Made by a program: the position numbers and the translations under genes
Source: a virus
Lineage: Duplodnaviria; Caudoviricetes
Length of the DNA stretch: 47,026 bases
Strand: one strand, 5' to 3'
IMG/VR virus record: IMGVR_UViG_3300035562_000054
Span: 1-47,026 of that record
The notes under the pieces: generated by a model
Database searches by the model: none
Told to the model about the DNA's origin: nothing
Seen by the model: the letters and a program-made list of their open reading frames with translations, nothing else
Shown here: positions 3,788-46,240 of the stretch, one piece after another
Layout: every line of letters begins with the position of its first letter
Position numbering within the stretch: the stretch's first letter is position 1

Positions 3788-3865
3788 TAAAAAATGGGCC
3801 GCAAAGAGCGGCCCTTTCTGCATATGTGACGCGTCACAATACATTTATTTCATCATTTTTCGTTC

Positions 3866-6492: not shown

Positions 6493-7140
6493 TTACGCGG
6501 TTAATGCTTCTACACGGTCAATAATGCCCTGAATTACATGCTCAGCGCGTTGGCGTGGTGCGGCATACTGACATTCAACAATGCTACGCCCTGTGTCCTG
6601 TGCCTTGCTGAGGGCCGGTTTACGGGGTATGAATCCATCAATAACTATATAGGGTGTTTTCCCCAGGTAGGCGCGTGCGCCCTCGTAATCGGATTCGTTC
6701 TCTGATACGCCACTAAAGGCGATCGCTAACTTCTCTGTAGGAACGCCAGCGCGAACCAGACTGTTAGCAGTGTTCACGGTGGATTCAAGGTCATCAAGGC
6801 TAAACGACGTTGGGATAACGGTAAGGGCGCATTGGTTGGCGATCTCGATGGTGGACTTTGACGCAAACGCGGCACAGTCGACGACTACCAGATCATATTG
6901 TTCGCTGTCTTGGTGCTTTTTCAGTTGAGTTACCGTTCCCAGTGACAGTACATCAAACACCGGCTCAAGCTGAGCGCTCATTCTGCGGCGCATCCAGTTA
7001 GCAAAAGTGGCCTGGCCTATATCCAGATCACCAACCATGACTTTCCAGTCAGCTTTTGCATATGAGACGGCCACGGCGCGGGCCAGGGTTGATTTTGTTA
7101 CTCCACCTTTACCGGATGCAAAGGCTATTGAAATGGTCAT
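6493..7140 (-). CDS. parA: ParA family partition ATPase
   Basis: Deviant Walker A (GKGGVTKST), DLD.Q motif and Walker B (YDLVVVD); short form lacking an N-terminal HTH. Confidence 0.92.
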   Translation of the reverse strand: MTISIAFASGKGGVTKSTLARAVAVSYAKADWKVMVGDLDIGQATFANWMRRRMSAQLEPVFDVLSLGTVTQLKKHQDSEQYDLVVVDCAAFASKSTIEIANQCALTVIPTSFSLDDLESTVNTANSLVRAGVPTEKLAIAFSGVSENESDYEGARAYLGKTPYIVIDGFIPRKPALSKAQDTGRSIVECQYAAPRQRAEHVIQGIIDRVEALTA

Positions 7141-7169
7141 TTGTCGAGACTCCGTTTCTATGATGGTTT

Positions 7170-7259
7170 GATATAAATATATATTTATATCACGGATGGG
7201 AGCATACAACAGGAGGGGCGGGGAGGCAATACATGATGATATAAATATATATTTATATC
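7170..7259. promoter_or_regulatory. Two perfect 22-bp palindromes upstream of parA (candidate centromere/operator)
   Basis: GATATAAATATATATTTATATC at 7170-7191 and 7238-7259. Confidence 0.7.
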
Positions 7260-7750: not shown

Positions 7751-8380
7751 TTAACGCCACATAACGATCGTGACAACTCGACCTACAATCTCGACCTTTT
7801 CTGATTCAGTAATCCGAATCGGTGGGAAATGAGTGTCATTTGTAGCGTAGATAAGGCACTCATTTTTACCGATCTCTTTTCGACCCCATAAGCACATTAT
7901 TCGACCTGAATCATCTTTGATAGCATAAATATCAGTCTTTTCTATAGATTTTACAGATGTATCTATCAGGACTTCGGCCCCTTTTGGTAGATCTGGCGAT
8001 AACAAATCATCTTCGACTTTCATTGTTACCAGATCACTTACTCTCAGGCGCTTGGTCTCAATTAAAGACGTGTTAAACGCAACGGAGGTAAGCGGCTCGG
8101 GTGAGCCGATACGTGGAAGCGGTGAGAACGCGAGGGAGTCGCTTTCCCCTTCCATATCACTGAGTGTGGCCAGCCATGCCGGGGACACTTTCAACGCTGC
8201 CCCCAGTGTTTTCATACTTTTCAGCGGGGCTAGCCGTATACCCGCCTCGTAGTTTTGGATAGTGCTTCGAGGGATGCCAGTACGATCCTCAAGGTCTTGG
8301 ACTGACAATTTAGCCTCATGCCGTTTTTGCCTGATCCGGTTTCCTACCTGGATAGCCATCGTAATTTTTTCGTCATTCAT
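7751..8380 (-). CDS. cI: CI-like phage repressor (XRE HTH plus degenerate S24-like C-terminal domain)
   Basis: VGNRIRQKR...LSVQDL...GIPRSTIQNYEAG.R...VSPAWL HTH; C-terminal domain ends VEIVGRVV; divergent from a cro-like gene. Start codon approximate. Confidence 0.85.
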   Translation of the reverse strand: MNDEKITMAIQVGNRIRQKRHEAKLSVQDLEDRTGIPRSTIQNYEAGIRLAPLKSMKTLGAALKVSPAWLATLSDMEGESDSLAFSPLPRIGSPEPLTSVAFNTSLIETKRLRVSDLVTMKVEDDLLSPDLPKGAEVLIDTSVKSIEKTDIYAIKDDSGRIMCLWGRKEIGKNECLIYATNDTHFPPIRITESEKVEIVGRVVTIVMWR

Positions 8381-8528
8381 TTCAGTAGAGTTCCGCCTCA
8401 AATTGTAGTCAGCGTAACACATATTGTAGGCATTTCACGTAATGACTACAAAAAGTCGTTTTTTATCTTGATAAATCCCAGAGTGTGGTTAATTATGATC
8501 CCTAATTGTAGTTTTTTTGGGGGGCGAT

Positions 8529-9023
8529 GTGACGCTACAGGATTGGGTAACACAGCATGGTGGCCAGCGGGCATGTGCGGCTAAATTTAACTTCTCGGTC
8601 TCCTCTTTGGGGGCCTGGTTCCGTGCCGCCCGTTATCCCACGCCAGCGAGCCAACAACGGTTAATAGAGTGTTCTGATAACCAGATAGATTTTCGTCATT
8701 TATTACAGACATTTGTGACTAAAAAATTAGAAGTAGCACAGGACAAAGAGCCTACTATTCGTCGGTTAACTGGCTCTGTTTTTGTTCGTGATATTTCCCG
8801 CCTGAAACAGCTTTTTAAAGAGCTGAATTTATCCCCTGAGCGCTGCAACCTTTATGGCGAAAAAATTACGGCCCGCTGGGCTCACACACATGTAACGGTC
8901 CGTGAGGTGCGCTCTGCTGTTGCCTTGCTGGCTAAAGATGGAAAAGACGCTGGTGATCTACAGCTGATTCACCGGGCGATTGCTGAGGCCCGTAATGCTG
9001 CGCTGGGGAGCCTTACACAATGA
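8529..9023 (+). CDS. Cro-like regulator with an extra C-terminal domain
   Basis: MTLQDWV..HGGQRACA..F..SVSSLGAW....RYP, a Cro-type HTH; divergent from cI. Confidence 0.7.
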   Translation: MTLQDWVTQHGGQRACAAKFNFSVSSLGAWFRAARYPTPASQQRLIECSDNQIDFRHLLQTFVTKKLEVAQDKEPTIRRLTGSVFVRDISRLKQLFKELNLSPERCNLYGEKITARWAHTHVTVREVRSAVALLAKDGKDAGDLQLIHRAIAEARNAALGSLTQ

Positions 9024-10090: not shown

Positions 10091-10112
10091 GGCCGCAACC
10101 AAGGGGTTAGAT

Positions 10113-10499
10113 ATGCACCAAACAAGAGGGATGACCCTGGAGCGCCGGTTAGAGCTTTGGGCGCGCTGGATCGTTACTGGGTGCAATTCGCGTAGTGGCT
10201 TCTCTTCGATGCTGGAAATGATGATGGTGACGCGTTGTCAGTTTTCCGGTGGCGGCGGCGAACCCCGAGACGACATAGAAACGGGCGTAGAGGCGGCGGT
10301 TATGTCATTAACCGCTGTTGATAAGGTCGCCGCATTAATTTTACGGGTTGAGTACGGAGCGTGGGCCCCTAAGAGCCTCGACGGAGCCCCGACACAACTG
10401 GATAAGGCCCACGCTCTCGGACTCTCTTTACGGACGTACAAACGGAAATTGGCAAAGGCACGACAACACGTAGCCAACTACCTGGGGATATCGCGCTAG
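10113..10499 (+). CDS. Antitermination protein Q-like late regulator
   Basis: LERRLELWARW N-terminus and a C-terminal HTH (KAHALGLSLRTYKRKL..AR); position is typical of Q. Confidence 0.7.
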   Translation: MHQTRGMTLERRLELWARWIVTGCNSRSGFSSMLEMMMVTRCQFSGGGGEPRDDIETGVEAAVMSLTAVDKVAALILRVEYGAWAPKSLDGAPTQLDKAHALGLSLRTYKRKLAKARQHVANYLGISR

Positions 10500-15099: not shown

Positions 15100-15446
15100 T
15101 GAAAACACCTGACGCCGAACGGAAGCGCGCCCAACGCCAGCGAGATAAGGAACGTGGGTTAACCGAGCTTAGGGTAACGCTGGAGCCCCAAGAGCTGGCC
15201 ATGTTGCAGGATAGTGCCGCTGGCCGTCGTTTGTTTCGTTCCCCTTATGACCTCAACGAGTACATAGCGCTGTTAATCAGGGAGGACCACGCCAGGCTAA
15301 AGCGGCAAATGGTGAAAATCCAGGCCCAACATTGTGAAAGGTGCGGTGACTGTGCTCCCGGCGATCTTTCTGGGTGCGTGTGTGCCGGTGATTCTCAATG
15401 CTGGCAGACAACCGGCCGAAATAAGTTACTACTCAACGGCAAATAG
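15096..15446 (+). CDS. Putative DNA-binding protein (RHH-like plus Cys cluster)
   Basis: KTPDAERKRAQRQR...PYDLNEYIALLIRED...CERCGD..P...C.C.GDSQCW; a common prophage family. Confidence 0.7.
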   Translation: MMKTPDAERKRAQRQRDKERGLTELRVTLEPQELAMLQDSAAGRRLFRSPYDLNEYIALLIREDHARLKRQMVKIQAQHCERCGDCAPGDLSGCVCAGDSQCWQTTGRNKLLLNGK

Positions 15447-15577
15447 CTGTGACGCGTCACAGGTGATAATTTTATATGGGAAATGGCTTGTGATTTTTGA
15501 CTGGCAATCTCAATTTGTAGGTTTTATTTGTTTATTTGAATCAAAAACTACAATTCGTGTTGTTTATTTTGGCCCTT

Positions 15578-15586
15578 TGGTATAGT
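15578..15586 (+). promoter_or_regulatory. Candidate late (pR'-like) promoter with extended -10
   Basis: TG-G-TATAGT at the end of an AT-rich intergenic stretch, directly before the structured region. Confidence 0.45.
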
Positions 15587-15589
15587 CTT

Positions 15590-16830
15590 TTTCATAACGT
15601 GGAGTTGTTGCGTTAAGCAGGTTTGTTTTGCACCAGGGTAGTAGTGGCCGCAGGGAAAGACCGCCAGACGTAAACTGTAAAAACGGTGAGATGCCAGCAC
15701 TCTCGACGGCAGTGACAGCCGGAAGTAGACGGCCGCTGGGCGACTTGAGCGTAATCGAGTAGGGGATGTGCCACCCGTAGTTTAGGCGCTGACAGCTGGA
15801 AAGACAGCGCCACAATCAAAGTGGGTGTTTTGGCGCTCTTTTTGATTGTGGTGACTAAAGCCCGGTGATTCTGTTTCCAGAGTTCAGGACCATGCAGGGG
15901 AAACCGTCAGCATGGGGGCGGGAGGGAAACGCCATTACAGCCGCCTGAAAGGGGGGCCACCACAAACTAACACTACGCCCGGAGACGGAGACGACAAAGT
16001 AACCTTATTGGCGAAACGTCCAAGCACCTAAACCGGCAATGTGTGCAGAGGACGGAAGGCAGATGCCGTGACGGCTGGGAGAGACCAGCACACAACAGGC
16101 AAGAGCATTACACCGGATATATGGACAGCAGCTGTGTTACCGCCGCTGGTGGCAAGGTAGTTAGGTCGCAGAGCCCGCGTAACGGCCCACGCGTCGTAAG
16201 GTGGTCAAAGGTAGTGCTCTTACCGTTGTGATGTGTACAAGCGTACTGCACCGCAGGCGGGAGGAAGACCGGAAATCGGCTGGGCGGCCACCATACGCGC
16301 CAATACAGTAAACTGAGCGGCCGGAAGTAAGCAGGGGTAGCGCCCTGGTGTCACAACAATAATTCGATTCAGAACGGGTCGCCCTTGTCAGTATGAGAGG
16401 TGTGTTCTGGAGAAGGTGAACGACAAGTAGCCCTCCCTGTCACGGCAGTGAAACCGGTTAAGCTCACTCCCGGTTAAAGAATGCCCCGTGAGGCTTAAAA
16501 GAAGGCCGTCCGCTCCACGTTACGGAGCACATAACCGCATGGGTTCTGCACCATTCATCAGTTGGTTGGGGCCGTCAAGCGCAGTCAGAGCCCAGCCGGT
16601 TATGTAAAGTTTGAAACGATGGCGCGGTTTAATTCCATTTTCCGCGAGTTTTCCCAGGCGATTCCATCTTAAGCCGGGCCGTCCGATGCGCGTAAACGGG
16701 GTAAGCCTAATCCCTCGATAGACACGGATAAAATAGTGCCGGGGCCACTCGCGTTAAGTGGCATCCTCTTACAAGGCCATCCCATAGCCATATTCAAAGC
16801 CCACTAGTTTGCAGCTGGTGGGCTTTTTCA
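15590..16830 (+). ncRNA. Putative cluster of structured non-coding RNA modules
   Basis: No credible ORF over about 1.25 kb; three long bulged stems, repeated GAC.GCYGG..AGAC.GC hairpins and many GAAA loops; ends at a terminator. Confidence 0.6.
16797..16828 (+). terminator. Rho-independent terminator
   Basis: AAAGCCCACTAG-loop-CTGGTGGGCTTTTT. Confidence 0.8.
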
Positions 16831-16852
16831 TTGTCCGCGAGGCAGAATCAGC

Positions 16853-17035
16853 ATGGAAAAACTAACACATGCTCAATTGTTGAGCCGGTTATCACAATTC
16901 AGCGGGGCCCAGCATGAAGCTGCTGCGATTGATGATCATGATTTTGCGCGCGAGTGCGCCGACGTGGTGAGCATTATTAGCGAATTGCTGGAGGCGCGGA
17001 CAAAGTTAGCCGCTGCCTATATTGAGAAGGAATAA
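16853..17035 (+). CDS. Hypothetical protein
   Basis: 60 aa with a GAGG RBS. Confidence 0.6.
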   Translation: MEKLTHAQLLSRLSQFSGAQHEAAAIDDHDFARECADVVSIISELLEARTKLAAAYIEKE

Positions 17036-17197
17036 CCAAGATAGTTACAACATCCTATTGGCAGTGGATAGGATGGAGTCGCCCGCGACACCATCCCCTC
17101 ACATGGCAAAAGGTCCAAAAATAACCGATTTTGATATTGCCGTAATTTTCGGACCTTTTGCCATGTGCGGTGATTAAATGACAACAAGGCTAACCAG

Positions 17198-17800
17198 ATG
17201 AAAATAATTCTTTCCGCTCCTGTACCGGCAATGGCTGAGGCGTTTAAGCGTGTCTTTGAAGATGTTGAGGGCGTTGAAGTTATTGCAGCTCCATTCGAGG
17301 CGATCAGCGAGTTTGATTGTATGGTCAGCGCGGCGAATAGCTTTGGGTTGATGGATGGTGGTGTTGATGCCGCGATTACTGAATTTTTCGGTACGCGACT
17401 GCAATCACGGGTACAGCGTCAAATAGTCAATGATTGGTGTGGAGAACAGCCGGTAGGTACTGCATTCGTCATTGACAGTGGCAATCTGGATCACCCGTGG
17501 TTAGTTCATGCCCCAACTATGCGGACCCCATCCGTTATAGCCGGTACTGATAGTGTTTATATCGCAACTTGGGCGGCGCTGGTGGCTATCCATATTCATA
17601 ACCGTACATCGATAGTTAGCCATCGAATCAATAGCGTGGTTTTTCCTGCTATGGGGGCTGGCTGTGGCCAGGTTCCGTTTGACAGTGTAGCGGCACAAAT
17701 GAAACTGGCTTGGCTAAATTTTAACAATCCGCCATCTGGTATTGATTGGGATTATGCCCTGTCCCGCACCCGAACCGTCATAAAGACGATTCACGGTTAA
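17198..17800 (+). CDS. Macrodomain protein (ADP-ribose binding/hydrolase)
   Basis: DCMVSAANSFGLMDGGVDAAI, LVHAPTM and FPAMGAGCG are macrodomain signatures. Confidence 0.9.
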   Translation: MKIILSAPVPAMAEAFKRVFEDVEGVEVIAAPFEAISEFDCMVSAANSFGLMDGGVDAAITEFFGTRLQSRVQRQIVNDWCGEQPVGTAFVIDSGNLDHPWLVHAPTMRTPSVIAGTDSVYIATWAALVAIHIHNRTSIVSHRINSVVFPAMGAGCGQVPFDSVAAQMKLAWLNFNNPPSGIDWDYALSRTRTVIKTIHG

Positions 17801-18151: not shown

Positions 18152-18180
18152 AAAGCCTCGCAATTAGCGGGGCTTTTTAT
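18152..18180 (+). terminator. Rho-independent terminator before the lysis cassette
   Basis: AAAGCCTCGC-AATTA-GCGGGGCTTTTTT. Confidence 0.8.
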
Positions 18181-21860: not shown

Positions 21861-21981
21861 ATTAGTTGGTCGGTTGTAATTACAACATTTGGATACGCGT
21901 TGTAGTCACATTTCTACATGTTGTAGTCATCTCATAGCCCGACTACAAAAACGGGCTATCAAATGGCCATAAGGATCATGT

Positions 21982-22623
21982 ATGGCGGGTTTAAAAGACC
22001 TTGAGCGCCAATTATTAGCCCTCAAAAAGCAGATCCCTTTTGCGACAGCACGAGCGCTGACCAGCACGGCGCGTAAGATTCAGGAAGCGCAAAAGGATAA
22101 CCTACAAAGCAAGCTGGATAATCCAACGCCTTTTACTGTTAACTCTGTAGCATCCACAGCGGCCAGAAAGACCAGCCTTAAAGCCAAGGTATTCATCAGG
22201 CCCACGGCCGCCGAATATCTGGCCCCCGAGGAGTTTGGTGGTACTCGCCACCTGAGTGGTAAGGCGTTGCTTAACCCCAAAGGGGTCAGGCTCAATAAGT
22301 ACGGCAACCTGCCTAAAGGTAAGTTGGGCAGCCTCAAGGCTAACCCCAATGTTTTTGTTGGGAACGTTGATGGGGCATCAGGCTTCTGGCAACGGAAGAA
22401 GTACAAGCCCGTAAAAGGTAAGAAGAAAGGCAAGCGCTCAAAGAACGGCACGCGCGCACCACGCCGTAAACAACCCAAGCTAAAGTTACTGGTGAGGTTT
22501 GGTGACGCCCAGGAGGCATCCCCAACGCTGGGTTATTTTGAGCTTGCTAATCAGATGGCGGCGGACCTGTTGCCTGGTGAAATGAGCGCGGCGCTATCTG
22601 AGGCGTTGCGGACTGCCAAGTGA
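21982..22623 (+). CDS. Basic virion morphogenesis protein (gpZ/HK97 gp10-like tail completion)
   Basis: KQIPFATARALT.TA...PTPFT.NS pattern, highly basic, located just before cos/terminase. Confidence 0.6.
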   Translation: MAGLKDLERQLLALKKQIPFATARALTSTARKIQEAQKDNLQSKLDNPTPFTVNSVASTAARKTSLKAKVFIRPTAAEYLAPEEFGGTRHLSGKALLNPKGVRLNKYGNLPKGKLGSLKANPNVFVGNVDGASGFWQRKKYKPVKGKKKGKRSKNGTRAPRRKQPKLKLLVRFGDAQEASPTLGYFELANQMAADLLPGEMSAALSEALRTAK

Positions 22624-36184: not shown

Positions 36185-37543
36185 ATGAGCCTGATTGATA
36201 CAGTGACCGACTTCTTTGATCCCGAGGGGTCTAAAAAGTGGTTTGAAACACTCCAGAAAGCACAATTCAGAGGTGTCCCCTTTGCCGTTCTTGGGGGACA
36301 AAGCTCATTTGGCCGTAAAACGGCCGTCCATGAGTACCCGTATCGTGATAAACCGTGGGTTGAGGATTTGGGTAGGGCAACCCGTAAATTTACCGTGAAG
36401 GGCTTTTTGGTTGAGGATAGCGTTATATATGGCGGCGGGGCGGTAATTGATCAGCGTTCCAATCTCATTGCTGCATGTGAAACAGCCGGTGCCGGGACAC
36501 TGATTCACCCGACATATGGTGAGTTAACGGTAAGTATTCCTGCTGGGGGGCTCCAGATTGTTGAGCAATGGGATAACGGCCGCTACTTTGAGTTCACGCT
36601 CAGGGCGATCGAGTCCGGGTTAAAGGTGTTTCCGGTTACGACGTCAACCCCGCTCCCGGATGAGGAGTCGTGGTTAAAGTCTATCGCTACAACGACGCTC
36701 CAGTTTGTTACGACCATCAACAGCATACTCAGGAAGAGTACGGCGCTGATTCAGACGTTGCAAAGTACCGCTGTTTTTTGGGTTAGCCAGGTAACCGGCA
36801 CGGTAAATGAAGCCAATAACCTTATCAATACCATCACCGATGTTTTTGACAGCAACAATTACGGCCGGTTTCAGCCATCGAGCAATAGTGGGTTGGTGAG
36901 TAACCAAACCTACCCGGTCTTAATGCAGAAGCAAAAGGCCGCCAGTGCTCAGAATCGCGGCAAAGTGGCCACAGTCGGTGATGAGTTGGTTAAATCGGTT
37001 GACGCTGAAACTTATGCTGAAAAAGGCAATGAGCTGCTATCCGCCGTTGTGCTGTCGGTCAGTGAACCACAGGACCAGATCCGAATTTTTATTAATCTGT
37101 CTGTGTTTGAAACCGGTGATTATGTTCCTGGCGTTGACGGTGCGGTACAAGATGCCGCGACACTCTTTTTTCAGCGCCTTGCTCTGGCTTATCTGGGGCG
37201 TGCTGCGCTCAATTATCAGCCGGTATCTCATGATGACGCCTGGGACGTTATGACCCTGGCGGGTGAGGCTCTGGAGGTTGGCGCGATCAATGCGGCTGAT
37301 ATGGGACACGATGACACATACCGTGATTTGATCGCGTTACATAATACGGTTGTTTCAACGCTGACAGAACGTGGCGCAAATCTGGCTCGTTTCACTGAAT
37401 ACCAGTTTTATACCTCTCTCCCCTCGCTTGTTCTTTCTGAGCGTATTTATCAGGACCCGGCACGCAATAACGAGCTGGTGAGATGCGTTAATCCTGTTCA
37501 CCCGGCATTTATGCCACTGGATTTTAAGGCGCTCAGCAAATGA
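36185..37543 (+). CDS. DNA circularization protein (Mu gpN-like)
   Basis: A.FRGVPF, HEYPYRD..WVEDLGR, GTLIHP.YG and HPAFMP motifs. Confidence 0.92.
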   Translation: MSLIDTVTDFFDPEGSKKWFETLQKAQFRGVPFAVLGGQSSFGRKTAVHEYPYRDKPWVEDLGRATRKFTVKGFLVEDSVIYGGGAVIDQRSNLIAACETAGAGTLIHPTYGELTVSIPAGGLQIVEQWDNGRYFEFTLRAIESGLKVFPVTTSTPLPDEESWLKSIATTTLQFVTTINSILRKSTALIQTLQSTAVFWVSQVTGTVNEANNLINTITDVFDSNNYGRFQPSSNSGLVSNQTYPVLMQKQKAASAQNRGKVATVGDELVKSVDAETYAEKGNELLSAVVLSVSEPQDQIRIFINLSVFETGDYVPGVDGAVQDAATLFFQRLALAYLGRAALNYQPVSHDDAWDVMTLAGEALEVGAINAADMGHDDTYRDLIALHNTVVSTLTERGANLARFTEYQFYTSLPSLVLSERIYQDPARNNELVRCVNPVHPAFMPLDFKALSK

Positions 37544-45080: not shown

Positions 45081-45264
45081 ATTGATCGTTTTGCGATCCT
45101 TTCTGGATCTTTAACAAGGAGTTGGGTAATTTGAACCCATTCAGTACGGGATCTGGTGCATAACGCCGGGCCATGTGCTAGAGTTCACCTGTTGACTACA
45201 AAACGTAGCAAAACATGCAGTATGGGATTTATGGGCGCTTTCGCAGGGTATCGCGGGAGTCTAG

Positions 45265-45415: not shown

Positions 45416-46240
45416 ATGGAAACCCACTCATCAGAGCCACGGCCGGGGATTATCAACCCCGATCCGAGGTACAAGCGACCAGATACATACAAGCGGCATA
45501 TGCCCGCGTTTATCACTCGTTTGCTTGATAGCATGGGTGAGGCCGATCTCACTACTCATCCCGCGTTCTACATGTTCACTGGTCGTCAACGCACTATACG
45601 GAAGCATGGCCGCAACAGCATAAACGCAACTCTTCGCACTCTAATAGCAAACGCCGACGTTCTGACCGCCTCAACAACGATCAGCTGTACAAGCATGTCA
45701 GCTCAGTGCGGGCTACAAAGCAAATCAGCATCGGGTAACAAGGGCATTACACGGTTTACCCGTGCCTTGAAAAACCTGGACGCGGCTGGCGCAACCCAAA
45801 CTAGCATTGAGCGTGACCCAGAGACGGGTAAATTTCTATCCGCTGTTGTTGTTATTACCGCTGTTGGGATGGCCATATGTGGTACGACGGAAAAAGCATG
45901 GCGCGCGGCCGCACGTATGCGCGCTAATTTCCAGGGTAAGCCGTTGGCCTATGGTGATGAGGAAGAGATCGACCTTAAACAGCGGCTAGCGGAACGCATG
46001 TCAGCATGGCGCGAGAGACAACGCGAGCGCAGCCGCGAAAAGGCAACCCGTAAGCGTGAGCGTACATTAGCGCGCCGGGCAAGTCGTAAAGATACTGAGC
46101 AGCAGCTACATACCCTCATTAAATCACTAACCAAATCACTACCGCTGGCCGAGTTAATAGAACTCGGGGCTGATGGCATTAAAAAGCGTGCCATGTCGCT
46201 ATTACGGCGAGTAACCTCGTCTCCTCCTGTACCTGAATAG
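45416..46240 (+). CDS. repA: Plasmid replication initiator, IncFII RepA family (divergent)
   Basis: NPDP, I.A.L..L....D, S...M...CGL...S..G...ITR.TRAL..L, DP..G..L and an Arg-rich C-terminus align with R1/R100 RepA motifs. Confidence 0.85.
   Translation: METHSSEPRPGIINPDPRYKRPDTYKRHMPAFITRLLDSMGEADLTTHPAFYMFTGRQRTIRKHGRNSINATLRTLIANADVLTASTTISCTSMSAQCGLQSKSASGNKGITRFTRALKNLDAAGATQTSIERDPETGKFLSAVVVITAVGMAICGTTEKAWRAAARMRANFQGKPLAYGDEEEIDLKQRLAERMSAWRERQRERSREKATRKRERTLARRASRKDTEQQLHTLIKSLTKSLPLAELIELGADGIKKRAMSLLRRVTSSPPVPE

Follow-up and report, generated by a model that had tools for sequence, protein, structure and literature searches.

The window, by which we mean the whole stretch of DNA analysed, is a complete IMG/VR virus record of 47,026 bp whose ends are direct terminal repeats. 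It reads as the genome of a temperate phage-plasmid, since PHROG and Pfam searches find genes for ParA, a RepA-like protein, a CI-like repressor, an endolysin and holins; its terminase is closest, at ~46% identity, to those of Citrobacter phage phiNP and Serratia BZS1. The plasmid-type genes, for the RepA-like protein (PF02387) and ParA, lie at 45416-46240 and 6493-7209. An array of about ten separate conserved non-coding modules, set between an extended -10 element and a terminator, follows a phrog_536 regulator gene that ends at 15446 and has a 60-aa ORF on its other side, beyond which come a macrodomain gene and the lysis cassette:

15514-15522, plus strand: left member of an inverted pair of operator-like half-sites (WTTGTAGKY) that precedes the promoter; pair kept in 4/4 orthologues
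15546-15554, minus strand: operator-like half-site, right member of the same pair
15578-15586, plus strand: extended -10 element TGGTATAGT, identical in sequence in 4/4 orthologues
15595-15684, plus strand: 5′ segment, poorly characterised; it holds a hexamer resembling a -10 (TAACGT) and two hairpins, one long and weak, the other GGAAAGAC
15686-15734, plus strand: module A, ending in the hairpin at 15714; 37/252 loci
15735-15790, plus strand: module A2; 4 loci, orthologues only
15791-15854, plus strand: small hairpin and frame 1, an empty remnant
15846-15970, plus strand: module B, with a closing stem of 7-8 bp next to a T-arm-like hairpin; 37 loci
15972-16040, plus strand: module B2, variable; BLAST coverage in about 10 loci
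16044-16090, plus strand: module C, whose compact core precedes the small hairpin at 16070; 24 loci
16091-16230, plus strand: frame 2 around module D; D pattern in 27 viral stretches
16225-16357, plus strand: module E, a closed multi-helix RNA with a pseudoknot; 137 loci, 85 distinct
16373-16528, plus strand: module F; 65 loci
16529-16605, plus strand: frame 3 with a short cargo (G); z -4.0, 2 distinct homologues only
16617-16670, plus strand: module G2; 7 loci, 3 distinct
16673-16764, plus strand: module H; 83% identical to Dickeya phage LIMEstone and Xanthomonas phage DIBBI
16796-16830, plus strand: intrinsic terminator; stem kept with changes in 4/4 orthologues, z -5.2

Apart from those of B2 and D, module counts are from nhmmer over 252 loci, which overlap and are related. 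The features described in the initial annotation are real and in place: the extended -10 and the terminator (called at 16796-16826) that were said to bound the region are both present, the three long stems were all recovered by repeat search and folding, and the small hairpins at 15714, 15791, 16070 and 16512 (GCTCC/GGAGC) are all in the sequence.

Several further elements surround the array. A perfect 14-bp palindrome, present in two copies, directly follows the phrog_536 gene at 15448-15461, where it is kept in relatives, and recurs at 3825-3838; it is a possible candidate binding site of the phrog_536 protein. Downstream, a 33-bp hairpin (17093-17174, 88% complementary) and a smaller one (17050-17075) lie between the 60-aa and macrodomain genes with 83-85% conservation in relatives, and may possibly be another processing site. 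The macrodomain gene (17198-17800; PF01661, E 2e-18), immediately upstream of the lysis cassette, is missing from this position in orthologous loci as judged by BLAST coverage, and its product is a candidate ADP-ribose-removing counter-defence protein. An AT-rich palindrome-like motif of the GATATAAATATATATTTATATC type recurs at about 1280, 1968, 2733, 7238 and 18128; it precedes several small early genes and is also found close to parA and in front of the holin terminator.

Transcription of the array is predicted to start near 15594, the TGGTATAGT element being passed over by the sigma-70 scan because its -35 is poor. WTTGTAGKY occurs in 10 copies genome-wide against 2.9 expected for a pattern that was picked after being seen; four of these sit in the cI-cro gap and two form the inverted pair before the array promoter, and the motif is kept in the cI-cro gaps of 3/3 relatives and upstream of 4/4 array promoters. 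It is likely an immunity operator, and its placement suggests that the array promoter is under CI or Cro control, of either sign; CI is encoded at 7751-8422 and a Cro-like protein at 8517-9023. The motif is also seen near 21982 and upstream of repA; its sites fall at 7781-7789, 8402-8513, 15514-15554, 21941-22108 and 45194-45202. At the other end, a variable C/U-rich tail precedes the terminator at 16796-16830, which together with a terminator at 18152 separates the array promoter from the holin, so that the array may have a late role by way of antitermination. A candidate gene for Q at 10110-10499 is weakly supported: its product matches a Q-like protein by BLASTP at E 5e-4 over 28 aa only, falls below the cut-off for the PA0613 family (E 9e-4) and has no PDB match. 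The initial placing of the region at the head of the late transcript thus agrees with its position upstream of the lysis genes and is otherwise unproven, the promoter half-sites being shared with the cI-cro gap and the Q candidate being weak.

The Rfam scan proposed in the initial annotation returned no family for any module. Nothing reached gathering level across the whole window; at E up to 10, a single chance-level match (E 4.5) appeared in 15400-17200, where known self-cleaving ribozymes and type III antitoxin RNAs also had no model match, and at E up to 1 seven related loci gave chance-level matches only. Neither ARAGORN nor Rfam finds a tRNA or tmRNA in the window. Type III antitoxins are tandem repeats of one 34-55-nt pseudoknot; no tandem family of this type was found here, direct repeats being at most 21 nt long and dispersed. 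Resemblances to twister, pistol, boxA/boxB and CsrA sites, judged by eye against consensus sequences, were dropped. The sole plus-strand ORF of more than 50 codons is a 62-codon GTG ORF (16043-16231) that has no PHROG or Pfam match and is broken by 324-577 extra bases in 4/4 orthologues, and three minus-strand ORFs of 50-83 codons lie at the 5′ end; the earlier statement that the region has no credible ORF therefore holds in that none is conserved, but overlooks that the 62-codon ORF exists. Among the listed runs, 2 of 24 are of RNA, and their libraries contain three short contigs, all inside the array (15654-15821, 16384-16504 and 15969-16172), which carry neither strand nor end information and for which DNA carry-over is possible.

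Against 200 dinucleotide shuffles, nested folding is stable for the small hairpin with stem 1 (z -4.3), G (-4.0), B (-2.3) and D (-2.2), reaches -1.6 for C and is near 0 for A, A2, B2, E, F, G2, H and the 5′ piece; for these last nine elements, C included, z-scores are weak and support is therefore comparative. For module E, a tree-based test on 49 sequences yields seven significant covarying pairs, all canonical, both sides have changed in 20/36 proposed pairs (26 of 85 distinct sequences), and pairing holds in 95.6% of cells versus 83.7% when shuffled and at most 43% when slid. Module F comprises a 5′ helix domain, a covarying stem, a second pseudoknot and the terminal GCTCC/GGAGC hairpin; it has one significant covarying pair (tree-based test, 31 sequences), and both sides have changed in 5/22 pairs with 97.7% paired (18 of 46 sequences). 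The compensatory changes in E and F bear on the covariation check suggested by the initial annotation, with the reservation that homologues were gathered with patterns from conserved cores, so that core invariance is built in. A predicted loop-loop helix in F (16440-16445/16486-16491) never varies and is thus neutral evidence. The second pseudoknot forms at least four Watson-Crick pairs in 18/26 of its own combinations versus 30% (maximum 54%) with swapped partners, and is weak in the window copy, with two Watson-Crick pairs and one G-U. Modules B (22 sequences) and C each have one significant covarying pair, that of C being located in its hairpin, while the core of C, judged by eye from its invariant bases, is possibly pseudoknotted. 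No significant covarying pair was found for D among 14 sequences or for H among 6, and the significant pair of A is non-canonical.

The three long stems are best described as three variants of one frame and not as a single repeat. Stem 1 pairs 15810-15820 with 15841-15851 at 100% complementarity, stem 2 pairs 16098-16111 with 16211-16224 and reaches about 16091-16230 when folded, and stem 3 pairs 16529-16548 with 16586-16605. Frame 1 has lost its cargo: one relative (L217) retains the full 5′ arm and a cargo, where the window keeps the outer stem only, and three orthologous relatives each have their own cargo in the slot behind the hairpin at 15791. Frame 3 keeps its stem in orthologues with two double changes, and its interior differs. 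A census with a pattern that catches frame-2-type stems only, and has one site in the window genome, counted 113 distinct stems in 346 loci with 30 cargo clusters, 24 of which have a small hairpin just upstream, and no frames in 150 shuffled loci. One common frame cargo (L059; L003:2390-2520) contains two T-loop-like TTCGATT motifs and draws no tRNA call.

Frames also interlock with the modules that follow them. The 5′ strands of B and E overlap the 3′ arms of frames 1 and 2, respectively; for E, this strand also serves, in 35/51 contexts versus 0/51 for a control 20-mer, as 3′ arm to a long stem lying upstream. Another version of the overlap test (55/64) was discarded, as shuffles gave 42/64. 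In folding, the closing stems of B and E form only once the upstream frame is removed. Frames 1-3 are predicted RNase III substrates, being long bulged helices of at least about 14 pairs. Real RNase III sites are reported to fit the consensus poorly (available text of PMC5371410).

The modules are scattered as a mosaic. BLAST matches occur in 38 of 50,697 phage records and 12 of 5,426 E. coli genomes, with a different segment in each, and no record among these 38 and 12 covers 80% of the query. Pattern scans of IMG/VR found F in 47 stretches, E in 116, H in 4, B in 29, C in 19 and D in 27, and a metagenome scan for H gave 14 stretches, two of them homologous by eye. Among family-level genomes F is present in 2/301, one of them marginal; an order-level search with the whole array (one marginal match in 401 genomes) is uninformative because only about two candidates were scored per genome. 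Across 250 loci, 29 module combinations were seen, with E and A, and likewise D and E, found in either order. At 51 loci the nearest long ORF upstream falls in a single cluster, represented by a CI-like member; at 12 loci, all with B, it is Q-like.

Single modules have distributions of their own. The 5′ segment is represented in no loci by 15590-15650 and in six by 15645-15690. Module A is mostly 93-100% identical by BLAST, for instance behind the cI gene of Klebsiella phage P7641, and B is also met singly: Erwinia phage Pavtok carries it after Rz, and phages of Pseudomonas type have it behind Q-like genes. In three phages H or C sits among tRNAs: H belongs to the tRNA region of LIMEstone and in DIBBI precedes a tRNA by 7 nt, and C is 71 nt from a tRNA in Caulobacter phage CcrPW. 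The hairpin of G2 matches the F model weakly (E 0.5); the same model scores other H copies at E 1.5e-4 to 0.2, three of them its best non-F matches, and the window H at E 2.9, which is suggestive of shared ancestry of F and H.

With the upstream gene as probe, 4 close orthologues were found among 73 viral loci, along with 1 distant bacterial locus. The upstream gene, promoter and terminator are common to the window and these four relatives, whose arrays measure 878, 1741, 1942 and 1947 nt versus 1252 in the window, with differences that are module-sized. One of them (L253) lacks A, B, E, F and G between the same promoter and terminator, another (L255) lacks B, and all four contain a further module, X, that the window lacks. 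Two DNA runs also depart from the window, one (X2) with 75 other letters across 15854-15955 and the other (X4) with 134 other letters across 15764-15846 and with B2 (15973-16041) replaced by 66 other letters. Together, these comparisons indicate that modules are gained, lost and reordered among related phages.

Known small RNAs are found in sibling arrays. A same-strand tRNA lies within 600 nt at 19 of 250 module-bearing loci, the RprA 3′ seed is present at 48 of 218 oriented loci, STnc100-like matches below cut-off occur in sibling arrays, and phiNP has a DicF-like RNA beside E (E 1e-3). In phiNP (L003:2640-2750) an RprA-like seed is joined to a DicF-like terminator hairpin directly after E, and a prophage of E. 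coli strain 44 (L010:2740-2810) carries a 90% copy, 40 nt long, of the 3′ end of RprA. The window array has no tRNA, RprA, DicF or STnc100 match: the RprA 3′ seed with terminator (RF00034) is absent from the window and present in sibling arrays, and neither DicF (RF00039) nor STnc100/PasD (RF02076) matches at E up to 10 in the window and two orthologous genomes (G000, G002 and G004 for the latter), so that, X being absent as well, the known trans-acting cargos are on siblings only.

Module X links the orthologous arrays to a described system, as in 4/4 of them it is 79-81% identical over 90-110 nt to the E. coli K-12 dicBF region just upstream of DicF. In the available text of PMC5069750, the dicBF transcript is processed by RNase E and RNase III and repressed by DicA/DicC, and DicF was undetected upon induction of the chromosomal operon, so that such RNAs need not accumulate; an estimate from the reported 72-nt length of DicF puts an RNase III end in a long stem with a TTGTG/CACAA core. 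The dicBF region of Qin is a long untranslated prophage stretch under a DicA/DicC repressor locus that yields an RNase E/III-processed small RNA (PMC5069750, available text), an arrangement that the window array may share, and in K-12 it comprises module X and DicF together with a frame-like stem and an STnc100-like module; the window differs in having no DicF, X or STnc100 match, and holds about ten other modules, with no conserved ORF among them, under its own promoter and terminator. The P1 tRNA operon with its 'dicF-like region' (NC_005856) has three frames of the same type, with the GCTCC/GGAGC hairpin that ends F ahead of a frame, set among tRNA genes and an STnc100-like module; its cargos differ from those of the window, which has no tRNA, and its record annotates the tRNAs and two opposite-strand ORFs, not the frames. 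The P1 plp and upl ORFs are antisense to framed RNA modules (L365:280-1420; P1 69060-70200) and, from this arrangement, may be spurious.

T4 RNAs C and D are processed phage RNAs of its tRNA cluster. RNase III contributes to T4 tRNA maturation (PMC4810235, available text), and phi80 M3 and P1 C4 are described as RNase P substrates (PMC11143913, available text). The window array resembles these in being, by prediction, a polycistronic phage RNA cut by host nucleases to small stable RNAs; it differs from the T4 cluster in that no CCA is encoded after the closing stems of B or E, and the likeness is one of general plan. The STnc100/PasD RNAs (10.64898/2026.05.13.724894, available part) are prophage small RNAs that occur near Q, lysis and tRNA genes and are flanked by structured RNAs, a setting like that of the present arrays; frames and exchangeable arrays are not described in that part of the account. 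The ncRNA arrays of UG27 reverse transcriptases are also variable prophage arrays with gain and loss of whole units, but there the units share one fold beside the RT (10.64898/2026.09.22.753630, available part), whereas the folds in the window differ and no RT was found among the flanking proteins scanned. Racr anti-CRISPR RNAs, too, are phage small RNAs behind a promoter; in the available text of PMC10651486 they are sense mimics of repeats cut by Cas6, whereas F is partly antisense and fails the repeat model.

Other readings of the region have to be set against these observations. It could be a cis-acting leader, of put, nut or Q antitermination type or serving mRNA processing or stabilisation, that controls read-through to the macrodomain and lysis genes and whose folds are by-products. 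The position upstream of the lysis cassette and the terminators at 16796 and 18152 between promoter and holin would suit this, as would the TAACGT after the start, which is kept in 4/4 orthologues and resembles a Q pause element, and the occurrence of modules mainly in leaders, including the 51 loci behind a CI-like and the 12 behind a Q-like gene. L253, however, dispenses with A, B, E, F and G under the same promoter and terminator, and this weakens the large antitermination leader that the initial annotation had offered as its second option; module order also differs across phages, H and C sit among tRNAs, there is no Rfam match, and the Q candidate is weak. We thus regard a leader as unlikely, while Q control of the promoter would be compatible with the best explanation too. 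The same dispensability of modules in relatives, the empty frame 1 and the rarity of the modules (12/5,426 E. coli genomes; F in 2/301 family-level genomes, one marginal) could instead mean that fragments, neutral or selfish, have been piled up by recombination and do nothing for the phage; this is very unlikely given double changes in E and F that preserve pairs, nearly identical copies of A in distant phages and the precision with which modules are bounded. That small ORFs account for the region is the most far-fetched of these readings: beside the 62-codon and three minus-strand ORFs stand the breakage of the former in 4/4 orthologues, its want of a family match, and the 1-2-nt indels and pair-preserving changes of E and F.

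Two readings concern individual modules. F, H and E have the size (90-155 nt), pseudoknots and invariant unpaired bases of self-cleaving ribozymes or catalytic processing elements that would cut the precursor, but no Rfam ribozyme matches at E up to 10 and long stems of RNase III type already flank the modules, which makes catalysis quite improbable. Module F might alternatively be an antisense anti-CRISPR RNA pairing with type I-F repeats in pre-crRNA. With an I-F repeat taken from fetched arrays, F (16436-16453) has the longest exact complement in the genome, 11 nt, followed by A (15706-15715) with 10 nt; the predicted duplex reaches -28.8 kcal/mol for the window and -35.8 for the commonest variant, and 3/150 shuffled repeats equal it against the array. 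The complementarity was, however, noticed post hoc, with no correction for this, and a better score (-30.3) is reached within coding sequence at 37031; the bulged base seen in all F variants is explained by the internal loop-loop helix, the orthologues L175 and L177 lose part of the match, and the CRISPR-DR4 repeat model (RF01317) finds nothing in 5/5 records; the lead is weak and this function for F highly improbable.

The region is thus, on comparative grounds, very likely a structured modular non-coding RNA, and its best explanation, a probable one, is a polycistronic small-RNA operon of the dicBF/P1 kind whose RNAs would be released by RNase III and act in trans. As regards the polycistronic precursor first proposed, modules that are separately conserved and exchanged, the double changes in E and F and the trans-acting RNAs of siblings favour it, while its processing by RNase III is argued by analogy. 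Release of modules by RNase III appears likely from the stems and the homologous dicBF region; that the module RNAs act in trans seems somewhat more probable than the contrary, and a role specifically against host defence is conceivable though doubtful. Of the functions first offered, decoying and antitoxin mimicry are speculative.

On this explanation as an RNase III-released operon, a single transcript would run from the promoter at 15578-15586 to the terminator, RNase III would cut frames 1-3, and RNase E, RNase P or an exonuclease would trim the products. Cleavage would free the TTGTG strand and so allow B and E to close their own stems. The sequence shared by hairpin and frame may serve at the same time as a crossover point for module swapping, and the immunity protein of the phage would control the promoter. 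Host proteins or RNAs are the predicted targets of the released small folded RNAs, which would act in trans: the pseudoknotted E, F and H would most likely bind or decoy host proteins at establishment or induction, which is the least certain part of the scheme, and the tRNA, RprA-like and DicF-like cargos of siblings would act by translation or base-pairing. Speculatively, and rather improbably as a whole, the arrays may represent an RNA cassette system in temperate phages of Proteobacteria, in which a shared joint of hairpin and stem is both RNase III release site and recombination point for a large pool of small RNA 'morons' (tRNAs, copies of host small RNAs and pseudoknotted folds), with pseudoknotted cargos serving counter-defence and F possibly blocking type I-F CRISPR systems through pairing to their repeat.

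In the literature found, the modules and frames are not described as an exchangeable array, although Faubladier and Bouche 1994 may already describe module X and the frames. The candidates of Fremin et al. (PMC10690425) may overlap with the modules; six short motifs were not found in the searched part of its supplements.

In summary, the array is a real, exchangeable set of structured RNAs, undescribed in the literature found and best read as akin to the dicBF and P1 operons. Accessory functions of phages are nearly always sought among proteins. If the modules are released separately, at least 30 exchangeable RNA cargos, including uncatalogued folds such as E, F, H, B, C and D, would have been missed, even in P1 and Qin, and DicF would be one cargo of a wider system, which is testable with the frames in P1 and E. 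coli K-12 and with module E in Citrobacter phage phiNP.
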